A DNA stretch of 64,000 bases from a virus, in IMG/VR virus record IMGVR_UViG_3300042868_005761, positions 96,001 through 160,000 of that record, one strand, 5' to 3'. The translations under genes and the position numbers were made by a program. Below the pieces are notes generated by a model. The model made no database searches, was not told the origin of the DNA, and was given only the letters and a program-made list of their open reading frames with translations. Below are positions 24,428-45,115 of the stretch, piece by piece (the stretch's first letter is position 1; each line of letters begins with the position of its first letter).

Positions 24428-24498
24428 TAGTAATCTTCCTTTTAGATCTCTATACTATATTAAGCAAGGAGATCATTTATTTATTTACTTACTATATT

Positions 24499-25986
24499 CT
24501 ATCTTTTTCCTGGCCCGCGCATGAATCGCTCCCAACCTGTTCTTAACGCTGACTTCTGACTTGTTGTACTTGTTGTAACTATTGGAACAATTGCAGGCTC
24601 TTCATCAGGGCGGTTGTTTCTTTCATTATACAGAGTCCCTACAGGATTCACCCAACGACTTGCCCAAGGACTCAGCGGATCTGCCATTGTTGGAATTAGA
24701 GAAGCTCTTACTTCAAGGTTAGGCGGGGGTCTTATCCCTAAGGTTTCTTCCCACATTTGTTTACAGTCCTCCGGTGTGCTAGGTAATCGCATATTTTTTA
24801 CTATAGAGTCTGTCGTAGGTCTATGAGCTACAAGGATGTCTTGGTTGGTGCCATTTTTTTCAGCAGGGACGCATAAAGTCTGGGCACCCTTTCCGATAGA
24901 CCAGATTGACTCGCCGGGCCGAAAATCATAATGCATGCTATCCCAACCAATATTCGGAAAATCAGGATGATTTGCATTTACAAATTCATGTGGAACTATA
25001 ACTTCACCGGCCTTGTTTGTTTTTAATACTTGAACACGGTTTCCTTCCTTGTCCCACATTGGTATTAAGCTTTTATCCCATCTACCAACTTCAGGTAGAT
25101 AGGTAATAATCTTACCTTCGCCTGTATGTAACATTTGTTGCTCTTTTTTTCCCATATCTCTTTCCATATGATATTTTGTATTTCCAAAATATCCTCCCCA
25201 TCTTACACCGTATTTGGGAGCTGTCCTTGGTACAAAACCAAAAGAACCAGTTATTTTTCCATTTGGTATATCCTTTATTAACTGTCCATTATCATTATGG
25301 GAGAAGAACTCTTTTCTTACCATTACTCCACTGCCATTATCTTCCATTCTAAATTGTCGACGGGCTCCTAATTCACCACTTGAACCACCTGTCCTGACAA
25401 TCCCATCTGTATCTGGTTTCCCCAGGACTAAGTCACCCCAGTTGCAAATAGTTCCATCTTCGTAGGATATATAACCAGGATGCCCAACTACAGTAGGATC
25501 TCCCTGTATAAGTCTACAGATAAGCTGATATAAGAGCTCATATGTTCTATAAGATCTGCCGTTTCTGATATTACAAAGAAGTGTTCCATCATTAATTCGT
25601 ATACCTACATCTATTGCTAATCCACTAAAGTGGTTTATTGTATCTCTTAGCCCTCTAAGAAGAACACCGTTTCCAGCCTTCATATACTCCTCTTTCGTAA
25701 TGTCTTGTTGCGCGCATATATTATAAATCTGCCAACCACTAGGCATAAATTTACTTGCTGTTTGCATCATAGCTTCAAGTCTTGGGTCTGCATCTACCAT
25801 GCATTTCATGTCTTCAGGGGCGGTTCCGTGGCGGGCGTTTTTGTGACTATGTTCTTCAGTAGTGCGATAGTAATACTTATATCCTCCTCCAACATACCTA
25901 TGAGGCATTAGGTTAAGAGGCGTACCACTTCCAATCAAGCAAGGAAAATCGGCTTCTCTCTTTGCTATTATTTCTTCTCTTGTCAT
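24499..25986 (-). CDS. M15-family (LAS) Zn-dependent peptidoglycan peptidase (495 aa)
   Basis: H-x6-D (HFSGLAID), VRWGGYF and WDSMHYDF motifs match L-Ala-D-Glu peptidase/M15 signatures; paralogous to the N-terminus of the hub. Confidence 0.7.
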   Translation of the reverse strand: MTREEIIAKREADFPCLIGSGTPLNLMPHRYVGGGYKYYYRTTEEHSHKNARHGTAPEDMKCMVDADPRLEAMMQTASKFMPSGWQIYNICAQQDITKEEYMKAGNGVLLRGLRDTINHFSGLAIDVGIRINDGTLLCNIRNGRSYRTYELLYQLICRLIQGDPTVVGHPGYISYEDGTICNWGDLVLGKPDTDGIVRTGGSSGELGARRQFRMEDNGSGVMVRKEFFSHNDNGQLIKDIPNGKITGSFGFVPRTAPKYGVRWGGYFGNTKYHMERDMGKKEQQMLHTGEGKIITYLPEVGRWDKSLIPMWDKEGNRVQVLKTNKAGEVIVPHEFVNANHPDFPNIGWDSMHYDFRPGESIWSIGKGAQTLCVPAEKNGTNQDILVAHRPTTDSIVKNMRLPSTPEDCKQMWEETLGIRPPPNLEVRASLIPTMADPLSPWASRWVNPVGTLYNERNNRPDEEPAIVPIVTTSTTSQKSALRTGWERFMRGPGKR

Positions 25987-26047
25987 AGTATTAACCTTTT
26001 AAAATAAGTATTAATCCTTTATCTTTATCTATCTTTATAAGATACTA

Positions 26048-28444
26048 TTACTGCTTGCCACTTCCCTCTGACGGGATAATTCCACCAATCTTATCTCCTT
26101 CGGCTGCTGTTGGGGCTGCTGTTGGGGCTGAAAGTCTTTCTGTATCTTTCATAAGGCGAGTCTCACCAGACTCATTTGTGATGATCCAATGCTCTTTTCT
26201 TAGTTCATCTTCTAATGTTTCTATTCTTCTAGCAAGTTTCTGCGCAGCATTAATTACATCTTCAGTTACATTAATTCCAGTTTTTTGACCTGCTGCTTCT
26301 CCATATAAACCATAACCTATGTTGGCTGCACATAGGCTATAAAAATTAAAAAAATGATCAAAAATATCACCCATTAAATCGCTTGTTACGCGCTCGCGCC
26401 GTGCTATTTGACTTTTACCACCGTAAGGAGCCCCAGGTAAATTTTTATTAAAAATTTCTATCGCAGTAATGTCTGGGGATTCTTGTTCTAGTCCTGTGAG
26501 AGCCCTATAGTAATTATCTTTCCTGGAATAGTAGTCTTTAATTCTTTCGCCGCAGTCTGAAAATAATAGCAATTGCTCTTTACCCGCAGGCTGAAACGCA
26601 CTTAACTTCAAAGAATTAGAAGCTCCAGATAGAGTAGGTGCAAGATATTTATTATAATTATTTACATAATATTCAAGAATATCATTTTCCATATCTCCTA
26701 TCACTACATCCCAAGTACTCCCAAAAAACCAAACCCTATACGCAGGAGTAGTCTCAGTTTTGGGCACCATAGTTGAAGTCATTATATGACCTGCTATATA
26801 ACTGGGATGACTTTTATGTAAATTATTGTTGATATCACTTTCTCTATAAAATCTCTTACTGGTGCTAGGATCCACCACAGTTGCAAACTTGTGATTTTTA
26901 ACAAAATTATAGCTCATTTGCCAACTGCTTTCTATTTCAGCATCAATCTTCCAGCGACTCTGAGGGTTCTCTCCGGTAACTGTAAGACCTAAGCTTGGAC
27001 TTGTCCATTGAACTTTATTTCTAATATTTGCTGCTTTTAGAATACCGTCAGTTTGAATCCACCATTTTGATCCATTAGCACCAAGAAAATGGGAAATATA
27101 CATCATCCAATAAGGAAAAACTCCATCAAAAGTACCAACAAGTTTTAGGTTTCTTTCGTTGACAGTTTCTATCCCTTTTTTATTTCTACTACCTGCACTA
27201 CCTGCACTACCTGTTGTACTAAGCTCTGGAAGTATGTCTTGTTTTATTAGCTTTTTGGTTTCCGGATCTTCAGTTTGAAAGTAGCTGTTATTTATTACAG
27301 CCTGAACTTGCCCTTCAAGCAATCCTCCAAAGGTATCTATAAATGCAAGTTCATCTGGCGCAAATCGGGAATCTAAGTATCTCATAGAAGTAAAATCACT
27401 ATCCATTCTTGTATCTAGATAAACAAAAGGATAAGGATTTCTAGCATCTCTAAATTTCATTTGGTCAGGATTCTCCGGGTCAACTTCAAGAAAAGCTGAC
27501 TCAACATAGTTCTTTGTTCCTCTGTTAGCCGCTTGGAATTGAGTCACAAGGAATTGATTTCTTCCCCATTCCGCCTTTTCTCGATCATATTTAGCTATAT
27601 ATTCAGGATTATTGATCATTAATCTTCTATATTCATGTGCCGCAACTACATAGCGATCTCTCATAGCTGTATGGCTTTGATACTGTAAGTATCCGGTTGC
27701 TGCCGAATCATTTATGGCATAAACAGTATTACCAGATTCTCTCTCAGCGACAGCTAATCTAAATAAAGTAGCATTAAACTTAAGAAGATAAGAATTTTCT
27801 GCTGAAAGATTATCTAATTGAAATACGTTTAAGTATCTCAAGTCAAAAGGTTTCATTCCACCACCAGGAGTACCTGGGTTAAAAGTAAGTATACTACTTG
27901 CATCAAGTTTGACACCAGGAAGAGCTTCATTGCGAGGAGGCGCTCCACTACCACTACCACTTCCAGAACCACTGCCGTCACCACTGCCGCTAGGGGCTCC
28001 CTGTCCAAAAATTCCCCCTGTCTCCGGATCAGTCCAAGCATCGGCAACTTGCCCGACATACTCAAACAGGCTCGGTAGGGATTCGTCTGAATCGTCTTCT
28101 TGATTATCACCAATGTAATCACTGGCTAATGCAGTAAGTCCGACTCCTCCTACAGCAAGAGGAACCCACAAGGGCGCGGTGGTCGCAAGCGCTCCGACAC
28201 CTCCGACTGTTAAAAATGTTCCTGCTATCGTAGTTACGTCTCCCTGTCGCCATCGTTCACCGTATGCATTGCCGAACCGTGCAATCGCGTCAAAAGCGCC
28301 TTGCTGTACTGGAACGTCTTGCTGTACTGGAGCAGCAATAGTACTTCCAGGAACTACTGCAGGGGTAGGAGTAGGAGGGGCACCTGAACCTTCAGCAACA
28401 CCAGAACCTTCTTCTCCTGTATATCCTCTTTGTTCTGCTGGCAT
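26048..28444 (-). CDS. Putative lytic transglycosylase/lysozyme-fold virion protein with N-terminal hydrophobic hairpin (798 aa)
   Basis: 'LAVAERESG...AATGYLQY' fits the SLT ES...A.G..Q motif (Glu at about aa 236); 'MYISHFLGANG' is motif-III-like; hydrophobic segment at aa ~72-107; GS linker. Confidence 0.6.
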   Translation of the reverse strand: MPAEQRGYTGEEGSGVAEGSGAPPTPTPAVVPGSTIAAPVQQDVPVQQGAFDAIARFGNAYGERWRQGDVTTIAGTFLTVGGVGALATTAPLWVPLAVGGVGLTALASDYIGDNQEDDSDESLPSLFEYVGQVADAWTDPETGGIFGQGAPSGSGDGSGSGSGSGSGAPPRNEALPGVKLDASSILTFNPGTPGGGMKPFDLRYLNVFQLDNLSAENSYLLKFNATLFRLAVAERESGNTVYAINDSAATGYLQYQSHTAMRDRYVVAAHEYRRLMINNPEYIAKYDREKAEWGRNQFLVTQFQAANRGTKNYVESAFLEVDPENPDQMKFRDARNPYPFVYLDTRMDSDFTSMRYLDSRFAPDELAFIDTFGGLLEGQVQAVINNSYFQTEDPETKKLIKQDILPELSTTGSAGSAGSRNKKGIETVNERNLKLVGTFDGVFPYWMMYISHFLGANGSKWWIQTDGILKAANIRNKVQWTSPSLGLTVTGENPQSRWKIDAEIESSWQMSYNFVKNHKFATVVDPSTSKRFYRESDINNNLHKSHPSYIAGHIMTSTMVPKTETTPAYRVWFFGSTWDVVIGDMENDILEYYVNNYNKYLAPTLSGASNSLKLSAFQPAGKEQLLLFSDCGERIKDYYSRKDNYYRALTGLEQESPDITAIEIFNKNLPGAPYGGKSQIARRERVTSDLMGDIFDHFFNFYSLCAANIGYGLYGEAAGQKTGINVTEDVINAAQKLARRIETLEDELRKEHWIITNESGETRLMKDTERLSAPTAAPTAAEGDKIGGIIPSEGSGKQ

Positions 28445-28465
28445 TTTAATTCCTTATTTCTAAAA

Positions 28466-29815
28466 TTAAGGCATGTTTCCGTTTCCGTTAGGTCCGGTAT
28501 TACTACCACTTGTGCTCATTGCGTGTTCTAATTCTCTGAAGGCCGCTAATTGCTGCTTGTCATATCCATCTGCAGTAACCTGTCCGTCTTCTTGGAATCT
28601 AATCTTAAATAGTCTTGCACGATCAAGTGCTAGTTTTCTTTTAAAATAAGTTCTTATTATATCCGCGACTTCTGGATCAATTGAGATGGACTTAAATTCT
28701 TTCCACTTTAATATTATAGAATCTCCTAGATTATGATTCTCAGACCCATAAGGGCTAATTTGAGTAAAGTCATATCTATTTAATTCATTCTCTTTATTAT
28801 TATTAACAATTTTTTGTGCCCATCTTGCATGTAGCCAATCAATGTATTGTTTGTAAAGGCTACTCTCATATGCAAACTGTGTAACGTCACTCTTTAACAT
28901 ATAGTTCTGATCAAGACTATTAATAGAATCAATTGTTTGATATGCAGGATTAACAACTGACAAATCACTTTCAGTTGTAGTTACTTGACTTGCACTATCG
29001 GCGCTAAGTTTAGGATTAACTGTCCACTCTTTTGATCCAAAATAATATGTAGTCTTCTCTGGGTCCAGATCTGATTCTTGCAATCTAGAAGGATACTTAT
29101 TCCAGTTTGGTAACTTACTCTGTATTCCAGCGTAGTTCATATTAACATCATAGAAAGATGATCCACTCTTAGCATCCCAATTCTTTTTAAATAACCACTT
29201 ATCGCTATATGGAGTATAGCCCATTGGACTTACTGTAAGAGTAGCAACAATAGTACCCGGCTCGCCTGGGCTTGTTGAGATTGCTAAGTTATGCATGCAA
29301 AATACCATATTATGTGTATGGGGTATTTTTAGTTTTGCTCGCAAAAAAGCATTCTCAATTACTGAGAATGGAATATGTTTGAACTGGATTATTAAGTCTA
29401 GAATGCCACCGCGCTTCTGAGTATTATTAATATTAAAATCTTCGTTGAGTGCTCCACTCTCAGAAGTTCTATCATCAATATTAATAATTGAATTCTTACT
29501 TGGGATATTTAAGTTGATAGAGAAAATTTCACTTGCAATACCTACTGGTACTTTTGAAGCAGAATTGCTTCTTAAGCTCTGAAATTCCGCATATGAATTT
29601 TCTTCTTGAGAACTTATTCTTTCTGGAGGCACTTCAAAATATAAATCGTTGACCCAGAATCCATGATTAAACTTATCACCATAAGTTGAATATCCACCTG
29701 CTGAATTAGCTGCAGCTGATATATCTCCGTCAACTGTGCTGTCTAAATAGTTTTTTGCATTGTAAGCATCTGGAAGAACTGTTCCAATGCTTGGTAAATA
29801 TCTTTTTGAAGCCAT
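28466..29815 (-). CDS. Putative tail tube initiator / baseplate hub-associated protein (449 aa)
   Basis: 'FWVNDLYFEVPPERISSQEEN...FQSLRS' resembles gp48/tube-initiator-type N-termini; translationally coupled to the 2294-aa gene. Confidence 0.5.
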   Translation of the reverse strand: MASKRYLPSIGTVLPDAYNAKNYLDSTVDGDISAAANSAGGYSTYGDKFNHGFWVNDLYFEVPPERISSQEENSYAEFQSLRSNSASKVPVGIASEIFSINLNIPSKNSIINIDDRTSESGALNEDFNINNTQKRGGILDLIIQFKHIPFSVIENAFLRAKLKIPHTHNMVFCMHNLAISTSPGEPGTIVATLTVSPMGYTPYSDKWLFKKNWDAKSGSSFYDVNMNYAGIQSKLPNWNKYPSRLQESDLDPEKTTYYFGSKEWTVNPKLSADSASQVTTTESDLSVVNPAYQTIDSINSLDQNYMLKSDVTQFAYESSLYKQYIDWLHARWAQKIVNNNKENELNRYDFTQISPYGSENHNLGDSIILKWKEFKSISIDPEVADIIRTYFKRKLALDRARLFKIRFQEDGQVTADGYDKQQLAAFRELEHAMSTSGSNTGPNGNGNMP

Positions 29816-32800
29816 TATAGTTGTCTCTCCAAGTCTGTAGGTATATTGTAATTATGATTGATACTTACCCCAACTTGAGCTCCAGGAATTATTCCTTGAA
29901 TTGATCTGGCATATTCAACTGGATTTGTCTTATCAACAATCATTCCTCTATTTGATATCCTGACACTAGCATTGTTTAAGTAAGACTTAGCAGCAATGCT
30001 ATTAGGTGCAGTCATTGTTCCTGACATCTCAGGGGAGCCTGCACTTCTTGCCATTTCTTCATCATTGGCTTGGCTATAGTTAGAATAGTTGTCACTAAGT
30101 AGATTGCCACTATTAATAAGTTGCATATCTGCATTAGTTGGGGTCATCATCATTCTACCAGGTGGAGGGGGAGGAAGATCAGTAAGTGGCTCATCATCGT
30201 ATCCAGAGTTGAATAAAGCATATGCGCCAGTCATAACAGCAGCACCAACCATACCAGCTCTTGCAAACTTATTAGCAAATAGAGATTTAGATGCTTCCTT
30301 TGCATCTTTCAATTCTGCTCTTGCTAGCTGTGCAGCTGAAGTGTTTTTTGTTCTAGCGGCAGCTTTTGCTTTTTCTGATTGGTTTAATTGAGATAGACTA
30401 TCTCCAAGCGCAGTGCCTCCTCTGCCAGTTAATCCTTCCTTAAATTCAGCTACTCTTTTCTTAAATTCCTCTTGTCTTCCTTTGGGTAAGGCTGACACGG
30501 CAAAGTCTAATAGCATATCACTTCTACCAGAATCTAATTGATGTAATGCAAAATCAGAATCTGCACTTCCTGAAAGATAAGAATTTAGTGCGTCTTCTGC
30601 TGTCATCTTCTCAGCTTTTTGTCCGCCACCTACAAGAGATGCTCTTGCAAGAGAGAATGAGCCAAGGGCTTGATCACTATTTGTATCAATCTTGTCTGCG
30701 TCTCTAAAACCTAAGTCTTTTAGTAGAGACTTATACTGCGCAAAACCTTGCTCTACGTTTTCATTTGCAATAGCGCTATGGAAACGCTGATACAACATAG
30801 CACGTGGAGACGTAGCCATATGTTTGAAACCAACAGCTTTCTGCTCCATTGCTTGTAAGAAGTTTGTCATTTCTTCTGAAGAACTACTATCAATTCCACC
30901 AGTGCCTTTCATTACATAATTCATTCTATGCATGGCTCTAGCAGTATTTGAAATTAAACCAACATCTTCTTGACCGGCTTGTCTTAGGAAAGCTTCTTGT
31001 TTTCTAGTAGACTTAACTCCGCCGCCTTTAAGTAAGTCTTTAAAAGACTTCTCTAGGGTAGCTTCATTGCTTTGGCTTCTTAAATCGTATTTCTTTTGAC
31101 GTTCAAATTGTTGCTTTAGACTAGGTTGACTAATAAGATCACTTTGCTGTTGCCAGTAATCAGCTATATTCTTACCAGATCTATTTCTATCACCAGCACC
31201 AACCATCATTACAGCAGCGGTATCACCGTCAAAGTCTGATGAAGTCTTTCCTGTGATAAATCCACCAAGTCTTTTCCAGATCTTTGCTCCTTCAAAGTCT
31301 ACTTGTTCTCCAAGAATATTAGCTGTATAACCTCCAGTTACGTCTCTACGCTTATCGTAATAGCCCGCCATTGTAGACACAGACTCAGGACCTATCTGAG
31401 GATTTTGCCAGCCCATAACAGCGTAGTATTTGCCTTCTTCAAGAACACCTTTCTTCATTTTCTTTAGATAGTTCTTTTCACTTTTAGAGGCAGTTCTCAT
31501 TGCTTCATTAAAGTGTTCTTCGATAACTCTTTTGCTCATACCAACGCCATAGCCTTGAGTTTCTTTTGCAATCTTGTCATCTAGGTTTGCAATAACCATT
31601 CCATACTCTGCTCCACGTAGTCTTCCTTCAAAGGGTGCATTAAAAGCTTCCATTCCTTTTCTTGCTCCAACTTGCATAAGTTGGCTACGTAAAGTAGAAA
31701 ATACTTTTTTATCTACGTCATTTATATTTGTTTCAACACTTCTAAGTATCTCAGTAATCATTTCTTCAAGATCAGTATCTTCAACATTACGACCAGCTCT
31801 CGAATCTTTTAAAGACAATTTCTTTAAATCATCTGCACCAGGTATATAAATCTGACCAGTTTCATGCTTTAAGAAACCACCTTTTGCTTTGATTGTTGAT
31901 AGCATTTTGCGACGATCTGCCTCGCTTGTCTTTGTATCAGAGAAATCTAATACTTTATCTTTCTTTGTCAATTCACGAATTGAATTCTTTGAAAAACTAC
32001 CTAGCTGTTCAACGTAACCAGGATCATGAGTCATAACTCTTTGCTGAACTGTCTCCCATACTTTCTTCATATGTCCATGTCTCTCGTTCTGAGAATCCAT
32101 TAACTGATAGAAGATGTGATCAACAAAGCGTCGTTCCATTCTTGCATTATTGCCTTGAATTATAGAAGATGAATCTGCTACTCCATGCAACGAAAGATTA
32201 AACACTTGCTTTGAGTTCTTGATACCAGCACCTAGGCTATCAACAAAGTCCTTGTCTAAGCCAAGATCTAAGAGTGCTTGAGGATCAGTCTCAATTAGAT
32301 TCTCAAGACGGAACCCAGCTTCGTCAGTCCCACCTTGCTCAAATCCGAACACGTTCCCTAGTAACTGTTCTCTTTGGGCAATTAATGTTGGATCTTCTTT
32401 GAACGCATCTTGCGCTCTTTTTAAATAGCTAATTAATGCATTAGTGTCTTCAACTGAATAGTTTTCTTGCCCCAGTCCCTTTTTCATACCCGCATGAAAA
32501 GCTTGATAGGCTGGATTAGCAGGAGAACTAATATCCCCAGCATAATTTCTAATATCCTTTAACCCTAAAGTAGGATTATTATCAGCATCAAATCTATTCA
32601 GTAGGAATCCTATTGCACTCTCTTGTTGAGTTCTAATTTGACGGATATTTGTTCCCTTTATAAAGTTACGACCTTCTCCTATAAAGGTTGTAAAAGGAAG
32701 AGTTCTTTCTGCTGCTACAGAGCCCATAAAGGCAGGATCAACTGCTCCAAAAGCTCCAGCAATTGCAGGTGCATTCCTGGCAGTAAGTATTTCATTAATC

Positions 32801-35800
32801 TTGCCTGTTCGCACAGAATCTCGCATTCCATCCCAGCCGCTTCTTGCTGCATCTACATCCCAAGCATTCTGGTCTGAGAAATCTGCAATTTCACCTTTAA
32901 TTGTCTTAAGAGAATCAAGAAGACTTTTTCTCTGAGCTTTTAAATCAGCTACAGGATCTATTTTGCCATACTTTGCTTCTGCAGCTTCTGTGCCTACTTG
33001 ATTTGCAAGACTAGAATAAGCAAGTTTTCTACCCTCTCTTAGCATTTTATTTACTTGCTCAAGTCGAGTTAGGTTGGCTGTTTTTTCTGCTGATAATCTT
33101 GCATCTCCTGGAGTCTGCCCCATAAGAGATTTATTGGCAACTCTCTCTCTTTTAGGGATACCTCTTCCTCCTAAGAAAGCGCCAAATTTACCATCGGCAA
33201 TTGATTCTTTATTAAGGTATTCCTGAACAGTACCAGCACTCGCTGGTTCCTCAACGGCGTCACCTGCAAAAAATGTCTCTACCCCTATTCTCTGTGAAGC
33301 ATCAATGCCAAGTAATTCTTCTAGCATATTACTTCTAGCACCTTTAACAGTACGTGAATCAACACCTAATGCGTATTTGTCTAGAGTTTTAGATAGCCCA
33401 GCTTTTGAAGACTTTCCACTTCCAGAGTATTGAGCTTCAAGACTTCTTGCTAGACTTGGCTTTTTGCCTTGCATCCAGGAAGGCATAGTCTTTCTGCCAG
33501 CCTTTGACTTCATTAAGCCTGTGCGAAAAATATTCTCAGCTTCGTCTAGGCTTCCCATACCTCTTCTTTCAAACTCTTGACTTAATCCTTTAACCTTATC
33601 TTGCTGACGAGCAAATCTATCAGCAATACTATTTCTATAAACTATTGTTCCATTAGGTTTTTGATCTGGATGGCCAGCAAAGTACCTTTCCATATTTCTA
33701 AAGACTGTCTGCTCTTCTTTACTTAAAGCTGTAGCTCCAGCAGTATTAGCTGCCAAGTATCTAATAGTTCCTTCATTCTTTTGCCAAAACTTAGACTCTT
33801 CTTCTAGGTTAAAAAGAGCCTGGACTTCTCCAATTGCTTTTTCTTGGAATCTAACATTGCTTAGTTCCGCGGCAGAGAGTCTAGGTTTATTTCTTAAAAG
33901 ACTTTCTCTCTCATCCATAAGGTCAAAAAGATTGGCTTTACCGCCTGTGCTTTTTCCTTTTCCTGGCCTATTTGGGAATGCTATATCTAGCATTGGACTT
34001 TCGTCTACTTCCCATTGACTTCGCCAATCTTTTAGAATTTTATCCGTCTCTTCGGTGCGAGGACCCATCGTCTCTCGAAGCTGTTTATATCCTTCATAGG
34101 AAGTCTCAAGCGATTTATTCTTTCCTAAAGAGGCATAGGCTTGCTTGGTTTGTTGTTTGCCAAATTTTGCTTTATCTTTTGTATCTTGAGCAGCTTTGCT
34201 TATAGTGCTCTTCTGTAAATTTGCAAGAGCATCTTGTAAAGCTTGTATCTCAGGAGCTCGTCTTGTCTGTTCTGCTTCTATTACAGACCTAGCATCTGCC
34301 TTTGACTTAGCAAAGAATTCATCTTTTTGTGAGTCTACAAAATCTAAAACTGATTGATATTCGCCTTTACTTAATTCCTGATCAAACAAAGAGCTTTCAG
34401 TACTAGTAGTAGCGCCAAAAGTTTTAGTACCTTCACCAAAGCCACTTACTCTACCAATGCTAAATGTATAGTCATCCATGCCAGGAATAACATCTAAGAC
34501 AGCAAGTCTTCCTTGCCCTGGTACATTGACAGTTACATCAGTTAAGTCATCGCCTTCTACTTTCTTACCTAACCAATCTCCTTCATTTAGAAAGATAGGA
34601 TTAGTTTCTAGTTCTTTTCTAATAGCAGCTTGTCTTGCTGCGGCATCACCAGTACCAGCCGCATCTGCAGCATCAATGATTCCTTTGAACTTAGAATTAA
34701 AAGAGAAAGCTTCTCTTGAAGCTGGGTCACCTTTTGTGCTTTTGTCGACGGTAAAGTGTCGACCAGGATGAATGACTCTTTCGCCTTCACTAGCCCCTAC
34801 TCTAATTCTTGTGCCTTCTGGTACAGCCTGTGGATTCTCTCTCATGCTTTTTTTAGTTGTTAGCCAGCTGCCATGGACAAACCCAATCATTCCTGACTTC
34901 TCCATATCAGCAAAAGCACCTGATCCTCTAAATGCATAAAGATCGCCTAGTGTTGCACGCAAATGACCAAGAGCTCTTTGCGAGCCTCTATTCTCTACAG
35001 TATAAGCATTAATAATATGTCGACCAGGCCTTCTTCCTATATCATTTGTAGAGTAGAATTCACCTGTGCTAGGATCAACTTCTCCAAGTGCAGCTCTGAC
35101 ATAGTCAGGTGTGCTAGTACTCATTACCTGCCCAGCAGCGTCTCTTTGAACTCCTCTGAAATTGTAAATATCTTTTCTTATTTGATTTGGACTTGTAAGT
35201 GGTTCGATTTCGTAACCATGGCTAATAGCTTGTTTTGAAATCTCATCAAAGTCACTTAGTCTACTAGCATCTGTACCTTCGACGTCAGCATCTGGATCCA
35301 TAGGATTCATACTGCGAACAACTTTCATTTGAGCCGCTTTAAGTGATAAAGCTCTACTGGGAGTTCTTGCAGGATCTACGTATTGGAGAATCTTATATTG
35401 GTCATCAACTTCAACATCCTTGCCACCAAATAATGTTGATCCAAGTCTTTGTCCTCGTTTAATACTTCTATCAATAAGACTCATGATCTGCCCATCAGAG
35501 CGAACACTTCTACCAGCCTTGTCTTTGCTTTCTTTGCCAAACAAGTATTCAAGTCCACTCATTATTTCGCTGCTTTGATCCTTGTTGATTTGCATAACTT
35601 TGCCAGTTGGACTGTACATGACAGACCCAGCTGCATCTCTATGGTAGACTTGGCCTCCTGTGCTTTCATCAACATAGTGAGCTAAATCCTGTACTGGAAC
35701 AAGAATGCTTTCTGCGTTATCAGCATCACCTATTCTATACTGAGCATATCTGAATTTTTTAGAATTACTTGCGCCAATCTTTTGATTGATTTCTACAATA

Positions 35801-36699
35801 TTAGATCTTTGGAACGTAGCATCAACACCTCTTTTCTTAATCTTCCCTTCAAAGTCTTTAACTCTTTCAAGCTCTTGAGTAGTCAAGTCTGACTGGGAAA
35901 GAAAGTTTACATTTGATAATGTGTTATTGCCTGTTCCAAACTTAAGTAGACCTCGTGATCCTGTATCAAGCATGGCTCGGTTACCATGTAGTCTTTTTGA
36001 GAAAACATCAGACATACCCTCAACGCCACCATAAAGCATATTAAAGCTATTTAGCATAGGCTTTAATCCCCTTTGAGCTGCCTTAGAATTCATTGGGCCA
36101 AAAGTTGTAGATTGAACCTGCTTTAAAAGTGCGTCGTAACTTTTTTGTTTTTGCGTTCCCGTAAACATACCAGAGAAACGTTTGTTAGTCATAATATCAA
36201 GTAAGGTTTGCCTTGTAGCTTCTGCTTGCTGGCCAATAAAAGTTTGGCCATCTGCTGCAAATGAGAACTTTTTTAAAGGTGTGCGGCCTCCAAGAATTGG
36301 GAGACCAACAGGTATACCAGTAGCGCCCATTGGCGTACTAGTAACAAATTTACTAGCTGGTGATATTCCTCCTCCTTTCATCTTTTCGCCACTGAATCTT
36401 TCTTGGTGTCTTTGGAATAAATAAGCTAATTGCTCAGAACTTAAAGCATGATTTACTGCATAGGCAAGAGACTCATTACTATTTACTCTTCTATTATTAT
36501 TTCTGTATTGCTGATTTAAAACATCAAAGAATGTTCCACCTTGAAAGTCAGAAAGAGTTTCACCTGCAAGAGGTGAAACGTCACTGCCTGTAATCATATT
36601 ACGGACAGCACTCATAGTTAGGTCTTTGCCTTTTGCTTTACCAAAAGCAAGCGCTCCTAATCCTATACTTAGCAAATTAAAAATCTTATCGCTAATCAT
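29815..36699 (-). CDS. Giant virion-associated protein; candidate single-chain two-barrel RNA polymerase (2294 aa)
   Basis: SDFDGD (nt 31222-31236), preceded by colinear beta'-like motifs GRLRG / GMSKR / WQNP; beta-like motifs EGERVI, GDWLGK, GEGTK and TNIRQI lie N-terminal. See findings. Confidence 0.6.
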   Translation of the reverse strand: MISDKIFNLLSIGLGALAFGKAKGKDLTMSAVRNMITGSDVSPLAGETLSDFQGGTFFDVLNQQYRNNNRRVNSNESLAYAVNHALSSEQLAYLFQRHQERFSGEKMKGGGISPASKFVTSTPMGATGIPVGLPILGGRTPLKKFSFAADGQTFIGQQAEATRQTLLDIMTNKRFSGMFTGTQKQKSYDALLKQVQSTTFGPMNSKAAQRGLKPMLNSFNMLYGGVEGMSDVFSKRLHGNRAMLDTGSRGLLKFGTGNNTLSNVNFLSQSDLTTQELERVKDFEGKIKKRGVDATFQRSNIVEINQKIGASNSKKFRYAQYRIGDADNAESILVPVQDLAHYVDESTGGQVYHRDAAGSVMYSPTGKVMQINKDQSSEIMSGLEYLFGKESKDKAGRSVRSDGQIMSLIDRSIKRGQRLGSTLFGGKDVEVDDQYKILQYVDPARTPSRALSLKAAQMKVVRSMNPMDPDADVEGTDASRLSDFDEISKQAISHGYEIEPLTSPNQIRKDIYNFRGVQRDAAGQVMSTSTPDYVRAALGEVDPSTGEFYSTNDIGRRPGRHIINAYTVENRGSQRALGHLRATLGDLYAFRGSGAFADMEKSGMIGFVHGSWLTTKKSMRENPQAVPEGTRIRVGASEGERVIHPGRHFTVDKSTKGDPASREAFSFNSKFKGIIDAADAAGTGDAAARQAAIRKELETNPIFLNEGDWLGKKVEGDDLTDVTVNVPGQGRLAVLDVIPGMDDYTFSIGRVSGFGEGTKTFGATTSTESSLFDQELSKGEYQSVLDFVDSQKDEFFAKSKADARSVIEAEQTRRAPEIQALQDALANLQKSTISKAAQDTKDKAKFGKQQTKQAYASLGKNKSLETSYEGYKQLRETMGPRTEETDKILKDWRSQWEVDESPMLDIAFPNRPGKGKSTGGKANLFDLMDERESLLRNKPRLSAAELSNVRFQEKAIGEVQALFNLEEESKFWQKNEGTIRYLAANTAGATALSKEEQTVFRNMERYFAGHPDQKPNGTIVYRNSIADRFARQQDKVKGLSQEFERRGMGSLDEAENIFRTGLMKSKAGRKTMPSWMQGKKPSLARSLEAQYSGSGKSSKAGLSKTLDKYALGVDSRTVKGARSNMLEELLGIDASQRIGVETFFAGDAVEEPASAGTVQEYLNKESIADGKFGAFLGGRGIPKRERVANKSLMGQTPGDARLSAEKTANLTRLEQVNKMLREGRKLAYSSLANQVGTEAAEAKYGKIDPVADLKAQRKSLLDSLKTIKGEIADFSDQNAWDVDAARSGWDGMRDSVRTGKINEILTARNAPAIAGAFGAVDPAFMGSVAAERTLPFTTFIGEGRNFIKGTNIRQIRTQQESAIGFLLNRFDADNNPTLGLKDIRNYAGDISSPANPAYQAFHAGMKKGLGQENYSVEDTNALISYLKRAQDAFKEDPTLIAQREQLLGNVFGFEQGGTDEAGFRLENLIETDPQALLDLGLDKDFVDSLGAGIKNSKQVFNLSLHGVADSSSIIQGNNARMERRFVDHIFYQLMDSQNERHGHMKKVWETVQQRVMTHDPGYVEQLGSFSKNSIRELTKKDKVLDFSDTKTSEADRRKMLSTIKAKGGFLKHETGQIYIPGADDLKKLSLKDSRAGRNVEDTDLEEMITEILRSVETNINDVDKKVFSTLRSQLMQVGARKGMEAFNAPFEGRLRGAEYGMVIANLDDKIAKETQGYGVGMSKRVIEEHFNEAMRTASKSEKNYLKKMKKGVLEEGKYYAVMGWQNPQIGPESVSTMAGYYDKRRDVTGGYTANILGEQVDFEGAKIWKRLGGFITGKTSSDFDGDTAAVMMVGAGDRNRSGKNIADYWQQQSDLISQPSLKQQFERQKKYDLRSQSNEATLEKSFKDLLKGGGVKSTRKQEAFLRQAGQEDVGLISNTARAMHRMNYVMKGTGGIDSSSSEEMTNFLQAMEQKAVGFKHMATSPRAMLYQRFHSAIANENVEQGFAQYKSLLKDLGFRDADKIDTNSDQALGSFSLARASLVGGGQKAEKMTAEDALNSYLSGSADSDFALHQLDSGRSDMLLDFAVSALPKGRQEEFKKRVAEFKEGLTGRGGTALGDSLSQLNQSEKAKAAARTKNTSAAQLARAELKDAKEASKSLFANKFARAGMVGAAVMTGAYALFNSGYDDEPLTDLPPPPPGRMMMTPTNADMQLINSGNLLSDNYSNYSQANDEEMARSAGSPEMSGTMTAPNSIAAKSYLNNASVRISNRGMIVDKTNPVEYARSIQGIIPGAQVGVSINHNYNIPTDLERQL

Positions 36700-36707
36700 A
36701 TTTAAAC

Positions 36708-39700
36708 TTACATAAACGGATTAAGAGTATTGTACTCGTTAAATGTTAAGCTGACAAAGTCTTGGTTTCTATTAGGTCCCTGGATATTATAACTATTTAC
36801 ACCATATGAGCTATATATCTTTGCCGCATTAGCCATTCCATTCAAACCATTTCTAGCGCTTAGGTTATTTAGATCTTGCATTGCCTTCTCGTCTATGTAT
36901 GGCTTTCTTGGCATATATGACGCACGACTTGGATAAATACCAAAATCATGGTAGTTCATGCCTTCGCTTTCAATATACTTTAACTTAACATCTTCTAAGT
37001 CTACTGCAGGATTAAATCCAATCCAGTCAACAGCTGGCATAGATCTATGATTAAAGAACTGAGATACTTCTTGTAGTTTTGCGCTATCTACCATCTGAGG
37101 ATCAGAAACATCAAATCCTTCTTTCTGTTTTTTAACAATAAGATCTGCTGCGTAATCCATACCATAGGTAGACATAGGAGCTGATCCAGCTGCGCGGTTA
37201 ATTGCTTCAAGATCTTGATTCATGTAGAACCCTTCCATTAGCCTTGACTTGTAATCTGGCAAAGCATCAATAATATCTTGTTGTCTACCAGGATTCATTT
37301 CTCTTGCAAATCCTGCAGCAAACATAGACTCTCTACCGCCTAGAACATTCCCTAGTCTTTCTTCCGAGACATATCCTGTTCCTCCTACATAGGTATCTTG
37401 CGCAATGTTTTGATACTGATTAGCTAACTGTTCATTGCCTTGCATTCCTGCTGCTTGTGAAAGTCCTGAATACTTAACATATTTGAGTTTATCAAAGTAC
37501 TCTTCTGTGTCTCTTTTTTCTCTTAGGCCAGGAGATTCAAAGTCAAATCCTAACCAATTATGTAATGCTGATTTAATAGCAGGGGCTATCCATCCTGCAA
37601 CAGGACTATCCCATCCTTTCATTTCTGTTCCGTAAAGTTCTCTTGATTCATATTCTTCAAGAGCATCTCGGAATGGTAATAGCTTGTTAACAGGAGACAT
37701 ACCAAACATACCAATATGCTCTATTGGCTGTGCAACCCTATTTGCAATATGAGTTGTAGCTTCCCATGCTCTACCAAACATCTTGCCAATGGGATTAGTC
37801 ATTGCATAATCTGCAATAGGCGAATCATCCTTTGCAAATCTACCTTCTTCTCTTATGTCTTTATTTACATTAAAGCCATTATTTCTAACAGCACCCATAA
37901 CTACGCCTCTCTCGTCAACGGCCTGACCAATACTTGCGGCAACATCAACAGTAACGCCTTGTCCTACTTGAATCTTGCTAGAGAAAGCTTTCTCGTTTCT
38001 AGTCTTAAGCTTTGCTGCTTGTTTGATTGATAAGTTGTAATCGCTAATTAAAGCATCAACGTCATTAGATATTCCTGCTACACCAAATCGACCACCATAG
38101 CCAGACACAGTAAAACTCATAGTAGATGCATCTACTGACGTAACATCACCACTGATAGTATCGTAAGTGCTTGGCTTGAACTGATAAGCGTCAGTGCCCT
38201 TATCGGTTGCCTTTCTTGCTACGTTCTGTTTATGCCTATAAAAGAACTTTTCCTCTTCTGTAGTCATTTCTCCTGAAGATCTCATAAGTTCAGCTTGACG
38301 CCGATATCCTTTATACTGGGGAGACTGAGGAGCAACGTCTCCTAGGATATTCATTTTATGTAGTAAAGGATAGTCTTCGGGATTGACGCCTTTTAATTCC
38401 GTATGCAAGGCAACATATCCTTTGCCCGGCATTCTGTACTCACCTTCACCATACCTAGTATTAGTGTATTGGTTTCCATATTGGAAGCTATCTGGCATCC
38501 AACTAGGCATAGCATTTTTAATTGGATTGTATTGCTTTAAGTCATCCTTGTGAAGGAATCGACGAATAGGCTCTGAGACAAAGGGAACACCCAAGAATGA
38601 ACCACCACCTTGTAGGTCATAGAATCTGCTAGCCATATCCATGTTACGAGAGAACGACTCTAACTCTTGTCTTTGGTCAGCAATGCCCGGTGTTCCTGTA
38701 AGATAGTTCTTTGCGGTTTTTGCATAGAAACCAACAAGACCACCTAGAGAAGTTGTCTGCTCCCAGAAGTCTCCTAATACTCTACTTGGAGAATAAGGAG
38801 AATAAGGTGCAGGCATTCCTAATCCACCAATACTTAAATCTGGAATCTCATCAAGCCCAGTAGATCTTTCTACAAACTTTACGTTACCTTCAGAGTCTGA
38901 ACGAGCCCATTCTCCAACATGCATTAGTCTTGGCTTTTTGATAAGGTCAGCGATCGGTTGGATAAGCGGGTATATAAAAGGAACTTGATCAAAGGCAGCT
39001 CCAGTTATAGGGGCAGGTCTGGTCCAATAGTTTTCTCTTTCAAGTTTATAAGTAAAGTTCTTAAGTGCCATTTCCATTAACGGACCATGTCCACCGGACG
39101 CGCCCGCCTGTGCAGCTCCAGAACTTAAGCGCGCAGTAAGGCTTGGACGATAATACAGAATATCAGTTCCTTCATATCCTGTCTGGCCCATTTCCCATTT
39201 CTGACCACGTCTAACAGCCTCTAATCTTTTGCCTTGATTTAGCTCTCTAAGCTCAGAGGGACGCTCAAGGGTACCCATACTACCCGTTCCTACAAACCAT
39301 GCCGCAGCAGCCACTGTAGAGGCATACAGAATGCTTCTAGTTCTAGGCGCAACACGGATGGCTTCTCTTAGTCTTCCAAGAGCATTCTTTTCACTTGCAA
39401 AGATTTTGCTTTTTGCTTCTGCGTATGTGTGATCAGTAACATGTTCAGCTATCTCGTCAAAGTTAGAAACATCTGCAACCTTGCCTATTGGATTGTTTAA
39501 TAGTCCGTATTCTCCTTCCCTTTCGAGAGAAGAAATATAAGAATTCATATTCTGTTCTACAATCTCAGTTTGTCTAGTTGATAGTCCTCCAGTATCACCT
39601 CTTATCTTTCTTATAGTAGAATCTAAAGTCCTTCTGGCTCTTATTTTTTCTTTGTCAGAAAGTTTAGGATAAGCATCTTCATGTGCTTTGGTTGCTCTAA

Positions 39701-41603
39701 GAACTCTACCGGCTTGTTCTCTTACTTCATTTCCCATGTCTGCAAGAGTAATGTTTTCTCTGTCTCTAAATTTAGCTCTTAAAAACTTTGCTCTTTCTTC
39801 CTGTTCTACGATAACATCCTTAGATAGTCCTCCAATCTTTAGATTGTCAGAGATTCTAATACCTCTAGTAGCAGCAACATAACTAGCTCCAGCTAAGAAT
39901 CCTACGCCCAATGAAGATATAACTCCAGTAGAGCCAGGCATCATTTCTTCAACATTGCGTCGCCAAGCGTTAACAGGAAGAACCTCTCCTACATAACTTC
40001 TAATCTCATTGCCTCTTGCTACAAGATTAGCAACTCCTGGTATTGGACCAGCTGCAAACGGACCAACTCCAGCCATACCTAAGACACCTAAGGCTGCACC
40101 CATTCCTGCGCCAACTAGTGTTCTTCTTTGCGAGTTGTCTGTAATTTGCATTGCCATCTTTTTAAAGACAGGAGCAAATCCTAAATCATCAGATAGAACT
40201 TCTGGAACTTTCTTTCCTAGATAAGCACCTAAGACGGTTAAGCCAACTGTTTGTAATCCACCTGATACTCCAGCAGTAACAGGATCTCCATTCATCATAT
40301 TCCAACCAAGCTGATTAACTGTAGCTAGAGTGAAAGCTACCTTAGCAGCCATTCCTGCGTATCTAACAAGCATTGCTGCTCCATGCCCATGATCTATTCT
40401 TGGAGCAAGATTATTCTTAGATAGGAAATTGTAAATCTTTTGCTTTGGGGCTGGAGATATATACTCAAAGAAATCACCTACCTGATTATATAGTTCTGAG
40501 AATAGTCTTGAAGTTCTTTGTAATGCCATAGAACCGTAAGCTTCAGTAAGCAAAGCTGTAGTTGCATATCGTCTTAAATTAGTTCCCTTGAAAAGACCAA
40601 GATCAGCAAGTGAAGTTCCTGCTCCATTTTTACCAGGTAGAAATTTAATTCTAGTCAAATTCTGCATTCGACCTATCATACGAGTTAACTCTGGATCCAT
40701 ATTATTTTCTGCCAAAAGAACATAACCTTCTTTGCCACCAATGCCTTCTGCAAAGGTTGCTCCTGTCTTTTTGTTCTTGAGACCAAGCGAAGGTTCGACT
40801 ACTCCAAGTAAAGCTTCTGTAAATAAACCTTTGTCTACTAGTCTTGCTGCTTTTTTATTCAAACTCTGCTTAGGTCCTGCTGCTGCGACTACCTCTCCAT
40901 ACATGTTTAATCTGCCAGCAAAAACATCCCCATCTTCAAATATTAAATAATCTAATAGTTCTAATTTTTTCCTATTCATCCTCAATTGTTTAGCATATAA
41001 ATCTAATGTCCTAGATCTATTGGTTGCACCAAGCGCATTCATACTTACGTTGAGAACTGTCTTTCCTTTCCTTTTTGTAGTATAGGATAAGACATCACTC
41101 ATATAAGTAGCTTTTGCAAATAACTTAACAACGTTATCAAATATAGGCAGATCTAAACCGCTCTGTTCTACTTTCTTAATACCAGCATACCAAAAGCTTT
41201 GCGGGTCATCAGATGAAGTAATATTCATTAACTCTTGGCTTGCTCTGAAAGTAACAGCTCTTAGAGTTTTCATAGCTTCTTTACCAGTCTTTAAATTAAA
41301 GACATCGCTGACTTTATTGACATGGCTAAAACTTCCAGACAACTGCCATGACTGGAACTTGGTACTCCTAGAGAGTTCACCTGCTCCACGTATTGCGCTT
41401 GGTCCCATAAAGAAAACAAGGCCACCGGCTGCGCTTTTCATTGCAAGATCTAATGCTTGATCAGCAACAGTAATTTCTTGCCCGGCATTCCCTGAGCCTT
41501 CTGCCCATGTTTGCTTATCTTCAGAATACTGTGATCTTTCCACTGATTGGCTAAGATCATGGTATTGAGCAAGTTGTTCTGCAATTACATTAGGTAGAGC
41601 CAT
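36708..41603 (-). CDS. Tape-measure-like / ejected membrane-channel protein with degenerate SNase-like domain (1631 aa)
   Basis: Follows the tail chaperones (canonical TMP position); several Gly/Ala-rich hydrophobic segments at aa ~415-780; OB-fold SNase-like pattern near nt 37840-38170. Confidence 0.6.
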   Translation of the reverse strand: MALPNVIAEQLAQYHDLSQSVERSQYSEDKQTWAEGSGNAGQEITVADQALDLAMKSAAGGLVFFMGPSAIRGAGELSRSTKFQSWQLSGSFSHVNKVSDVFNLKTGKEAMKTLRAVTFRASQELMNITSSDDPQSFWYAGIKKVEQSGLDLPIFDNVVKLFAKATYMSDVLSYTTKRKGKTVLNVSMNALGATNRSRTLDLYAKQLRMNRKKLELLDYLIFEDGDVFAGRLNMYGEVVAAAGPKQSLNKKAARLVDKGLFTEALLGVVEPSLGLKNKKTGATFAEGIGGKEGYVLLAENNMDPELTRMIGRMQNLTRIKFLPGKNGAGTSLADLGLFKGTNLRRYATTALLTEAYGSMALQRTSRLFSELYNQVGDFFEYISPAPKQKIYNFLSKNNLAPRIDHGHGAAMLVRYAGMAAKVAFTLATVNQLGWNMMNGDPVTAGVSGGLQTVGLTVLGAYLGKKVPEVLSDDLGFAPVFKKMAMQITDNSQRRTLVGAGMGAALGVLGMAGVGPFAAGPIPGVANLVARGNEIRSYVGEVLPVNAWRRNVEEMMPGSTGVISSLGVGFLAGASYVAATRGIRISDNLKIGGLSKDVIVEQEERAKFLRAKFRDRENITLADMGNEVREQAGRVLRATKAHEDAYPKLSDKEKIRARRTLDSTIRKIRGDTGGLSTRQTEIVEQNMNSYISSLEREGEYGLLNNPIGKVADVSNFDEIAEHVTDHTYAEAKSKIFASEKNALGRLREAIRVAPRTRSILYASTVAAAAWFVGTGSMGTLERPSELRELNQGKRLEAVRRGQKWEMGQTGYEGTDILYYRPSLTARLSSGAAQAGASGGHGPLMEMALKNFTYKLERENYWTRPAPITGAAFDQVPFIYPLIQPIADLIKKPRLMHVGEWARSDSEGNVKFVERSTGLDEIPDLSIGGLGMPAPYSPYSPSRVLGDFWEQTTSLGGLVGFYAKTAKNYLTGTPGIADQRQELESFSRNMDMASRFYDLQGGGSFLGVPFVSEPIRRFLHKDDLKQYNPIKNAMPSWMPDSFQYGNQYTNTRYGEGEYRMPGKGYVALHTELKGVNPEDYPLLHKMNILGDVAPQSPQYKGYRRQAELMRSSGEMTTEEEKFFYRHKQNVARKATDKGTDAYQFKPSTYDTISGDVTSVDASTMSFTVSGYGGRFGVAGISNDVDALISDYNLSIKQAAKLKTRNEKAFSSKIQVGQGVTVDVAASIGQAVDERGVVMGAVRNNGFNVNKDIREEGRFAKDDSPIADYAMTNPIGKMFGRAWEATTHIANRVAQPIEHIGMFGMSPVNKLLPFRDALEEYESRELYGTEMKGWDSPVAGWIAPAIKSALHNWLGFDFESPGLREKRDTEEYFDKLKYVKYSGLSQAAGMQGNEQLANQYQNIAQDTYVGGTGYVSEERLGNVLGGRESMFAAGFAREMNPGRQQDIIDALPDYKSRLMEGFYMNQDLEAINRAAGSAPMSTYGMDYAADLIVKKQKEGFDVSDPQMVDSAKLQEVSQFFNHRSMPAVDWIGFNPAVDLEDVKLKYIESEGMNYHDFGIYPSRASYMPRKPYIDEKAMQDLNNLSARNGLNGMANAAKIYSSYGVNSYNIQGPNRNQDFVSLTFNEYNTLNPFM

Positions 41604-41650: not shown

Positions 41651-42709
41651 TTATTCGGGTTTAGTTTTAAACCTCTTTTTGAAATTTGGCTTTTGTTTCG
41701 GCATTTTAGCAGCTTCATCTCTGGCTCTTTCTTGTTTCTGTACAATCAATTCATAGCCTGCTGGCATTAGTCCCATTTCCATTTGCATTGCTAATGCTTC
41801 AGCATCTGTCATAGTTGCACCAGCAAAGTCAGAACTTTCAAATCCGCCAAGTCGATTTTCTCTGTTAATTCTAATACCTGGAACATTAACAGCAACACCA
41901 TTTGAAATTGCTACAGCATCTTTTGGCGGGATGTATTCAGTTCTGCCTATCTTCTCTTCGACTTTCTTTTTGATCTCCTCTTCTTGCTTTGGCTTATTTT
42001 GCTGCTCTCTTCGGATGTCTTCTTCTTTCCTAAGTTTTGCTTCTTGTTTTTCTTGCTGTTCTTTTATCTTCAAGAGTTCCTTTAAGAAGCTGCCTTCTTC
42101 TGATTCTGGAGCAACATTAGTCTTTACAGGTTGCTTAGGCTCATTAGCTTCTTCTGAGGCCTGATCTTCAGGGTTATAAATTTCTAGAGGCTGCTTGAGC
42201 ATTCCGTTCTCTAGTAGATATCTTTCAGCGCTAGCAAATAGACTTGATATCTTGTCAAAAGACAACTTGTCTAACATCTCAAATGTATAAGCTTTAAACA
42301 CTAGACATATAACAGTATACATCTGGTATTCAACATTTGTTCTAGCAATGCTTCTGTACATATTTAACCTGAATGTGAATGCCGGGATATCAATCCTGCC
42401 ATTCCTATCCGGTATTATTCCAGAATCGCTAACATACATAATAAGATCAGAGATAGTATCTATCACACCTGCGGGCAATAGATCTATTTCTGTATCACTC
42501 CAACCTGGATCCCTAACCGTATAGTCCCTAAAGATTTTCATCTTTAGATCCCATGGAGGAATACTTTGAGCCCGTTCCGCAAAACGAATTCTCTTATATT
42601 CTCCCCATGGGATACGAGTATAGAATACAGTCAACTTACTAGATAAGTTGTAAGGAATATCTATAACATATAAGGGAATATCTTTATGTTCAAAGATATC
42701 AATTTCCAT
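41651..42709 (-). CDS. Tail assembly chaperone-like protein, long form (352 aa)
   Basis: Between tube genes and TMP; 'IDLLPAGVIDTISDLI' parallels the neighbouring chaperone; charged C-terminal tail. Confidence 0.55.
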   Translation of the reverse strand: MEIDIFEHKDIPLYVIDIPYNLSSKLTVFYTRIPWGEYKRIRFAERAQSIPPWDLKMKIFRDYTVRDPGWSDTEIDLLPAGVIDTISDLIMYVSDSGIIPDRNGRIDIPAFTFRLNMYRSIARTNVEYQMYTVICLVFKAYTFEMLDKLSFDKISSLFASAERYLLENGMLKQPLEIYNPEDQASEEANEPKQPVKTNVAPESEEGSFLKELLKIKEQQEKQEAKLRKEEDIRREQQNKPKQEEEIKKKVEEKIGRTEYIPPKDAVAISNGVAVNVPGIRINRENRLGGFESSDFAGATMTDAEALAMQMEMGLMPAGYELIVQKQERARDEAAKMPKQKPNFKKRFKTKPE

Positions 42710-42726
42710 TTTTTATCTTATTATGT

Positions 42727-44144: not shown

Positions 44145-44190
44145 TCAATCTCCAGAAACTATTTCTAGTGTGTAAATTACTTATTAAAGT

Positions 44191-44985: not shown

Positions 44986-44986
44986 G

Positions 44987-45115
44987 TTACCTTTTTAAGT
45001 AAGACTCAAATTTGTTTAGTATGTCTGTAAAATAGACATAAGCAAGAAACACTACAATAAGTACTATTATTGCTGCAGATATTTTTATTCTATCAGTTAA
45101 AGATTGTCCTTCCAT
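44987..45115 (-). CDS. Small single-pass membrane protein (42 aa), below the ORF-track cut-off
   Basis: ATG at 45115 with a GGAGG SD upstream; MEGQSLTDRIKISAAIIVLIVVFLAYVYFTDILNKFESYLKR*; stop lies 1 nt before the next ATG and fills the gap exactly. Confidence 0.7.
   Translation of the reverse strand: MEGQSLTDRIKISAAIIVLIVVFLAYVYFTDILNKFESYLKR

Follow-up and report, generated by a model that had tools for sequence, protein, structure and literature searches.

Among the tail genes of a lake-water virus lies one whose long product recalls, in a handful of motifs, the large subunits of cellular RNA polymerases (RNAPs), and the question raised by this locus is what such a protein would be doing there. 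The gene occupies the minus strand of a 64,000-nucleotide stretch (hereafter the window; positions 96,001 to 160,000 of IMG/VR record IMGVR_UViG_3300042868_005761), and an earlier note, made from the letters alone, had proposed that it encodes a single-chain, virion-delivered polymerase of the two-barrel kind. Structure predictions place two barrels, an Asp triad, a bridge helix and trigger helices in this one chain, and by alignment its catalytic set is strictly conserved and its gene sits in the tail module. Taken with analogy to known phage enzymes, these data indicate that it is probably an active virion-borne RNAP, working like P23-45 gp96 and crAss gp66.

Predicted fold of the 2294-residue protein

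The gene and the parts of its product (aa, amino acids) are as follows.

29815..36699, minus strand: putative single-chain two-barrel polymerase, 2294 aa, in the gp146 (tape measure) slot, from models and synteny
34387..34884, minus strand: beta-type barrel, first half, aa 606-771, from strands of the P0008 model mapped to the window, the interface and conservation
32710..34302, minus strand: charged, lineage-specific insertion of ~530 aa inside the beta-type barrel, aa 800-1330, from the alignment
32128..32694, minus strand: beta-type barrel, second half, with strands aa 1336-1347 and 1495-1509, an N-x-R-x-x-R-T-Q-Q helix and invariant E1522/R1524
31198..31611, minus strand: beta'-type double-psi barrel, aa 1697-1834, from VIA-align to 7dbo_B
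31399..31410, minus strand: W-Q-N-P, aa 1764-1767, Q1765 replacing the Arg of R-x-P (Escherichia coli beta' R425)
31222..31248, minus strand: K1818 and the catalytic loop D1822-F-D1824-G-D1826, from the 24-member alignment
30766..31005, minus strand: predicted bridge helix and trigger helices/loop, from model helices and conservation, assigned by order and by the Q929-x6-H936 spacing
29818..30282, minus strand: C-terminal module, aa 2140-2294, with a Gly/Ala-rich hydrophobic helix, a Pro-rich linker and a small terminal domain

The motif from which the proposal started, SDFDGDTAAV, does place D1822-D1826 at nucleotides 31222-31236, and the nine motifs quoted, this one included, are all found where the earlier note put them. 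DxDGD is confined to this one of the window's 35 open reading frames (ORFs), and its chance expectation within the 2294-aa protein is 0.06 (0.003 for DFDGD). Because a contig from another lake sample (30586-31755) shows no difference over DFDGD and WQNP, neither is an assembly error. Neither the protein nor its alignments have a match in Pfam, PHROGs or the PDB sequences, and tblastn against cultured phages gives chance amidase matches only. Protein searches identify 24 full-length family members including the window's protein, 1633-2422 aa long and aligning end to end, among which core identity falls to ~17%. Only 24 columns of this alignment are invariant; they include G629, K759, Q1358, Q1359, E1522, R1524, P1767, D1822, D1824, D1826, Q1953, F1958 and K1959, as well as five C-terminal positions. 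The conservation of DFDGD on which the proposal depended is borne out, with DxDxD in 24/24 homologues and the Gly in 22/24. One beta-like motif has to be reassigned: SEGERVI (637-643) had been taken as the counterpart of NFEDSIL in beta, and the conserved acid-Gly pair is instead E628-G629 (G629 invariant; E/D at 628 in 17/24).

Two chains were predicted with AlphaFold, aa 1335-2000 of the window protein (predicted local distance difference test, pLDDT, 83) and a short homologue, P0008, which is 37% identical (pLDDT 79, predicted template modelling score 0.72) and was folded as a stand-in since the window's whole core is too long to model. A double-psi barrel, which the earlier note had expected around DFDGD, is found there: aa 1697-1834 of the window model superimpose on the lone double-psi barrel 7dbo_B over 84 of its 86 residues at 2.0 Å (VIA-align Z 7.1). 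The best VIA-align match of this model is QDE-1 (Z 9.9, root-mean-square deviation [rmsd] 7.7, 290 residues aligned), followed by the large subunits of Pol I and Pol II (Z 9.2), P74-26 gp62 (9.1) and RDR2 (9.0); P23-45 gp96, at Z 6.5, scores below QDE-1 and the cellular subunits. The alignments to Rpb1 continue through the bridge-helix and trigger-loop part, and the best 50 rows of a Foldseek search of the PDB are all beta'/Rpb1-type RNAP chains, with weak expectation values (E, 2e-4 to 3e-3). The P0008 model matches QDE-1 over 476 residues across positions 16-1198, covering both barrels (Z 9.1, rmsd 7.5), and its N-terminal part matches the plastid RNAP chain 8qma_A (300 residues, Z 7.1, rmsd 5.2). 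In its atlas search, fused Rpb2_6+Rpb1_2 clusters take the first two rows, with 557-642 residues aligned and a query-based TM of 0.36-0.43.

The first half of the beta-type barrel contains E628-G629, a beta-rich insert (aa ~700-755), the invariant K759 and T765, and is separated from the second half by the long insertion, which shrinks to ~100 aa in the shortest homologues. When aa 490-800 and 1335-2000 of the window protein are modelled together as two halves, the assembly scores 0.78 against 0.00 for the best control (the mark is reached by 58/80 solved and 2/110 mismatched pairs), with at least 77% of contacts common between runs and a partner pLDDT of at least 69. In this model, 1340-1341 and 1496-1501 form pairs with strand 606-619, and the K759 loop and D1822-G1825 meet in the interface. 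The assembly shows that a barrel can form across the insertion, and is to be read no further, as two halves of one chain may pass by likeness to solved structures. A second, beta-type barrel facing the first is given both by the P0008 matches and by the two-halves model, and the proposed order of a beta-like and then a beta'-like barrel in one chain has the backing of both AlphaFold models, Foldseek, VIA-align, the atlas search and the assembly. The predicted structure has the double-psi barrel with DxDxD that marks the two-barrel superfamily, together with a bridge helix and trigger loop. About 340 aa separate the two barrels and ~330 aa follow the trigger loop, ending in a module that is kept in all homologues and is likely a virion anchor. 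Compared with two close relatives, the barrels are the most constrained part of the protein (ratio of nonsynonymous to synonymous substitution, dN/dS, 0.03-0.08 in both) and the insertion evolves fastest (43-47% identity, dN/dS 0.29-0.39), these ratios being rough, with synonymous sites near saturation.

The prominence of QDE-1 and RDR2 among the structural matches could be taken to mean an RNA-dependent RNA polymerase (RdRP) of the QDE-1 kind, and the nearest named feature cluster is also RdRP (score 0.81, a lead only). However, the Z-scores are level with those of DNA-dependent enzymes, crAss gp66 is QDE-1-like too and yet DNA-dependent, and there is no RNA-templated step known in such phages; we consider an RNA template highly improbable.

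Catalytic residues and substrate choice

The window model has helices at 1899-1932, 1938-1960 and 1966-1978. The first corresponds to a bridge helix (aa ~1899-1932) with G1909, Q1910, G1914 and S1917, and the others to a trigger region (aa ~1938-1978) in which Q1953, F1958 and K1959 are invariant and H1960 is present in 23/24 members. The arrangement Q1953-x6-H1960 repeats the Q929/H936 spacing of the beta' trigger loop. In strains of two other samples there is a 3-nt in-frame insertion at window position 31020, just before the bridge helix. The earlier note had allowed that the protein might be an inactive polymerase reused for structure; because trigger-loop and bridge-helix residues are invariant as well, this is now less likely, and the conservation argues for polymerase activity.

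Two other reservations of that note prove well founded, and the window protein indeed lacks two canonical features of two-barrel RNAPs, the Arg of R-x-P and the full pair of beta Lys residues. At position 1765, where relatives carry Arg, it has Gln; this column reads Q in 19/24, R in 4/24 (all distant members) and L in 1/24, next to the invariant P1767. The second beta Lys, present in 12/24, is T765. Thr is found throughout the window's clade and the Lys has been lost separately in two other branches of the family tree (made by a quick method and with long branches); since it was lost at least three times, its loss is tolerated. The replacement of Arg is accompanied by K1818, a Lys at position -4 from the first Asp of the triad, which is found in 20/20 members without the Arg and in 0/4 with it. 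As far as the literature was searched, Gln in place of the sugar-selecting Arg in the window's clade, always with Lys at -4, together with Thr for the second beta Lys, is new. The family offers a natural active-site series (Arg and two Lys, as in homologue P0021; Gln and two Lys, as in P0008; Gln and one Lys, as in the window protein) for the study of ribose choice.

In beta', Q929 belongs to the trigger loop. E. coli R425 is among the seven residues that two-barrel RNAPs have in common, and it is chiefly this Arg that selects against 2'-deoxynucleoside triphosphates (dNTPs) (PMC7862312). Its replacement by Lys leaves kcat largely intact (20 vs 31 per second; PMC7862312). An active polymerase with a relaxed or changed choice of sugar, which would use dNTPs or, on the incoming genome, produce primers or mixed chains in place of ordinary mRNA, is suggested by the loss of selectivity when this Arg is absent (PMC7862312), by a change at the N458 position (Ser in the window protein), and by the archaeal PolD row, which reads L-A-P at the Arg column (machine-read text of the supplementary alignment of PMC10770324). 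Against this, K1818 is present whenever the Arg is lost and may restore a 2'-OH contact, the Gln of the trigger loop never varies, a Pol III-type replicase and a primase are encoded by the phage itself, and cellular ribonucleoside triphosphates exceed dNTPs, so that a lower selectivity need not alter the product. We regard such an enzyme as quite unlikely. With the near-universal ribose-selecting Arg replaced, the lineage may select the sugar by a new route (the Lys near the Asp loop) or may have gained the use of dNTPs, which would place it naturally between RNA polymerase and the DNA polymerase chemistry of the PolD type; a real change of substrate or product, as opposed to mere compensation, is likewise quite unlikely.

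The tape-measure slot and its occupants

The neighbouring tail genes, in the order of transcription, are these.

45845-48916, minus strand: tail sheath (PHROG sheath, E 5e-45)
43260-45826, minus strand (module 43260..48916): three tube-like genes (phrog_9206; tblastn to annotated tail tube genes)
41651..43245, minus strand: probable tail chaperones, two genes of 172 and 352 aa (weak blastp matches to ME3_33, WH1 gp098 and gp097, E 7e-5 to 7e-4)
36708..41603, minus strand: 1631-aa gene, gp145 homologue (blastp E 4e-12 to gp145 and 9e-32 to WH1 gp096)
16229..29815, minus strand: hub region with 449-, 798-, 495- and 2732-aa genes, of which the 449- and 2732-aa ones match the hubs of ME3, WH1 and KLEB27-3

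The order of sheath, three tube-like genes, two chaperone-like genes, 1631-aa gene, polymerase gene and hub genes matches that of Bacillus phage 0305phi8-36, and is kept in the 4/4 homologue loci that were read. The earlier note had put the polymerase between a tape-measure-like gene and the hub, which is not so: it sits in the slot of gp146, the tape measure, itself. Both gp146 and gp145 of 0305phi8-36 are virion proteins by mass spectrometry, and gp146 was called a tape measure chiefly from tail length. R-x-P and DxDxD are also found in the occupants of this slot in three cultured phages, ME3_36 (L017:26870-31681), WH1 gp095 (L018:29205-36752) and KLEB27-3 gp034 (L019:30183-37487). Neither these nor gp146 are annotated as polymerases, and the literature searched, with incomplete coverage, held no report of same-slot genes as polymerases and no papers on KLEB27-3 or WH1. 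All four have the same C-terminal layout as the window protein. Profile similarity between the window family and the same-slot proteins is marginal (hhalign E 0.005 at best) and not significant for ME3_36 and gp146. In the BFVD structure database, matches with lengths fitting ME3_36 (E 1e-4) and WH1 gp095 (E 2e-8) were obtained, and this viral structure search also returned entries from MaMV-DC and Ma-LMM01. The best BFVD match is A0A8S5SD80 from Siphoviridae sp. ctnpt50, labelled 'minor tail protein' (E 3e-9, 1379 columns). A polymerase is a frequent and not an obligatory occupant of the tape-measure slot; some P23-45 relatives likewise have no polymerase at the tape measure (PMC10770324). 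In Moorella phage MTATph1 (L015:29115-36471) a transposase pair seems to split the same-slot gene, the C-terminal module lies in an ORF of its own, and DxDxD is missing from both pieces.

Delivery in the virion is suggested by the position of the gene and, by analogy, by the detection of gp146 in 0305phi8-36 particles. The enzyme would be a single-chain, two-barrel, DNA-dependent polymerase, synthesised late and incorporated, by way of its hydrophobic, Pro-rich C-terminal module, into the tail or its base in a phage with a contractile tail. It would be ejected into the host after sheath contraction, refold, and transcribe the first-entering genes, perhaps helping to pull the DNA in; the steps beyond fold and conservation, including the template and any role in DNA entry, follow P23-45 gp96 and crAss gp66 by analogy. 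A non-virion RNAP that merely happens to lie in the tail operon and acts later in infection would fit the make-up of the chain, which outside the C-terminal module consists mostly of polymerase and has no extended tape-measure part like that of gp96. This reading is nevertheless hard to reconcile with tight packing in a late structural operon, with a slot whose product in 0305phi8-36 is a virion protein, with a C-terminal layout common to the same-slot proteins, and with a separate candidate for a non-virion polymerase towards the opposite end of the gene order (see below), and we think it very unlikely.

Several observations weigh against an active virion polymerase. With Q1765 and T765, two of three basic active-site residues are off-canon, and the E. 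coli R425L enzyme is strongly defective in processive transcription (PMC7862312). K1818 may compensate for the lost Arg, but this is a hypothesis only, because the tree counts no more than two independent occurrences of the Arg/Lys exchange and KLEB gp034 has the Arg plus a basic residue at -4. Structural Z-scores reach only 7-10, with high rmsd. No DxDxD is present in gp146 of 0305phi8-36, and the essential job of the slot therefore needs no polymerase. Finally, since the genome encodes its own sigma-70 factor, much of the transcription is probably left to the core RNAP of the host.

Some of these points would fit a dead or near-dead polymerase fold that serves as a structural tail part (a ruler, plug or ejection channel), its Asp loop binding metal or nucleic acid. 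The window's clade has changed both R to Q and the second K to T, a 530-aa insertion lies within one barrel and varies in length as a ruler might, and the slot bears the name of tape measure in 0305phi8-36, whose gp146 lacks the triad. However, the Asp triad, K759 and the trigger-loop Q, K and H are invariant or nearly so at ~17% identity while most columns drift, and between close relatives the strongest constraint lies on the barrels. We judge a purely structural role unlikely, and favour an active, virion-borne RNAP.

Turning to the neighbours, the three tube-like paralogues match phrog_9206, which is labelled 'major head protein'; their GenBank relatives are tail tube proteins. [quoted passage not shown]

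Known polymerases and the rest of the genome

The closest published precedent is P23-45 gp96 (PMC10770324; PDB 8H2M/8H2N) and the second is crAss gp66, membership of either family being unproven. Like the window protein, gp96 has a beta and then a beta' barrel in one chain, the loop DFDGD, a gene at the tape-measure locus, and sequence similarity to known RNAPs only in motifs. It differs in length (5002 aa, of which the RNAP takes up the first ~1100 and a long tape measure comes after it), in coming from a siphovirus and in having no clamp, whereas the window's phage is a myovirus in which the polymerase spans most of the chain, with an insertion inside the beta barrel and Q for R. The peptidase- and membrane-bearing tape measure behind the gp96 RNAP is not seen in the window protein, which has no peptidase match, and there is no sequence match between the two proteins. 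The crAss-like phi14:2 gp66 (10.1101/2020.03.07.982082; PDB 6VR4) is likewise a one-chain two-barrel enzyme of ~2,200 aa that is packaged in virions, with a QDE-1-like bridge helix and trigger loop, but it is a podovirus-type ejection protein with DFDID, and the window protein shows neither DFD[IV]D nor gp66 homology. It has no sequence match to 6VR4, which is absent among the VIA-align matches listed, though the two may still be akin; crAss entries in BFVD match weakly (E 0.01-0.08).

Neurospora QDE-1, plant RDR2 and YonO-like phage enzymes give the best structural matches of both models, and the G-x-I-S-N bridge helix and F-K-H trigger loop of the window protein resemble theirs; they differ in keeping R-x-P and both Lys residues and are not virion tail proteins, and PF05183, the Pfam model of the QDE-1/YonO type, has no match in the window's genome. 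The phiKZ and AR9 RNAPs are multisubunit, in contrast to the two barrels in one ORF here. The concept of a virion single-chain polymerase is already published; what is new, as far as the literature was searched, is the group of phages, the architecture and the change in the active site. The survey in PMC10770324 was filtered on [RK]xP...DxDxD and contains none of these phages; such a filter would overlook the window's whole clade. If our reading is right, virion-borne single-chain polymerases of the cellular type extend beyond the crAss-like phages and one Thermus siphovirus, and lie unnoticed among the tail genes of a broad group of myoviruses like 0305phi8-36. The cultured ME3, WH1 and KLEB27-3 make this directly testable, including the passage of a ~200-kDa enzyme through a contractile tail.

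The virus record comprises a genome of 176,231 bp, is rated complete and is present in lake-water metagenomes of several studies, with no RNA dataset among the matching runs listed. Besides a primase and RecA, it encodes the following features relevant to transcription and replication.

L008:12806-13903 (= G000:C1:72806-73903): sigma-70 factor (Pfam E 2e-21)
L008:5933-9945: DNA polymerase III alpha, divided within its NTPase domain into ORFs of 436 and 828 aa
G000:C1:10784-15199 (L005), plus strand: candidate non-virion RNAP, 1471 aa, with a YonO/QDE-1-like motif series
L005:15685, 15760, 16363, 19413 and 19965: a 14-nt hairpin in five identical copies, each running into a T-rich stretch, and absent from the rest of the genome

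The motif series of the 1471-aa ORF consists of DG, Q-x-R..KG, R-W-P, GGDADD (aa 482-487, a DxDD loop), VGAMAN and VDAAQSG, is kept in four relatives and is followed by a fused YspA/SLOG domain at the C-terminus; PDB, PHROG, phage and atlas searches gave it no support. Of the hairpins, which lie downstream of this ORF, four or five are kept in three related contigs, and they look like terminators, resembling the pre-early ones of P23-45 (PMC10770324). The candidate second polymerase and the five hairpins parallel gp64 and the repeated pre-early terminators of that phage, and a similar plan, from virion enzyme to non-virion enzyme to host core with phage sigma, is a circumstantial reading of this genome. 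Pfam RNAP and RdRP models have no match in the genome; they miss the 2294-aa protein too, so further polymerases may exist. No promoter-like 11-mer upstream of genes is enriched above shuffles.

A 229-aa ORF with SSDYDGDK (L006:9847-10536 = G000:C1:29847-30536) was set aside as a probable chance occurrence (E 0.03 among the genome's ORFs) with no barrel-like context. The contig ends (G000:C1:1-143 and the last ~125 bases) share a direct overlap of ~125 bp, preceded at the start by a short inverted copy. The overlap suggests a complete circular assembly, though the record is classed as linear, and the inverted repeat beside it is best read as an assembly artefact. Near the left end, L005:2333-5644 holds overlapping plus-strand ORFs, two with matches to trypsin-like proteases, which possibly reflect a duplication or a frameshift.

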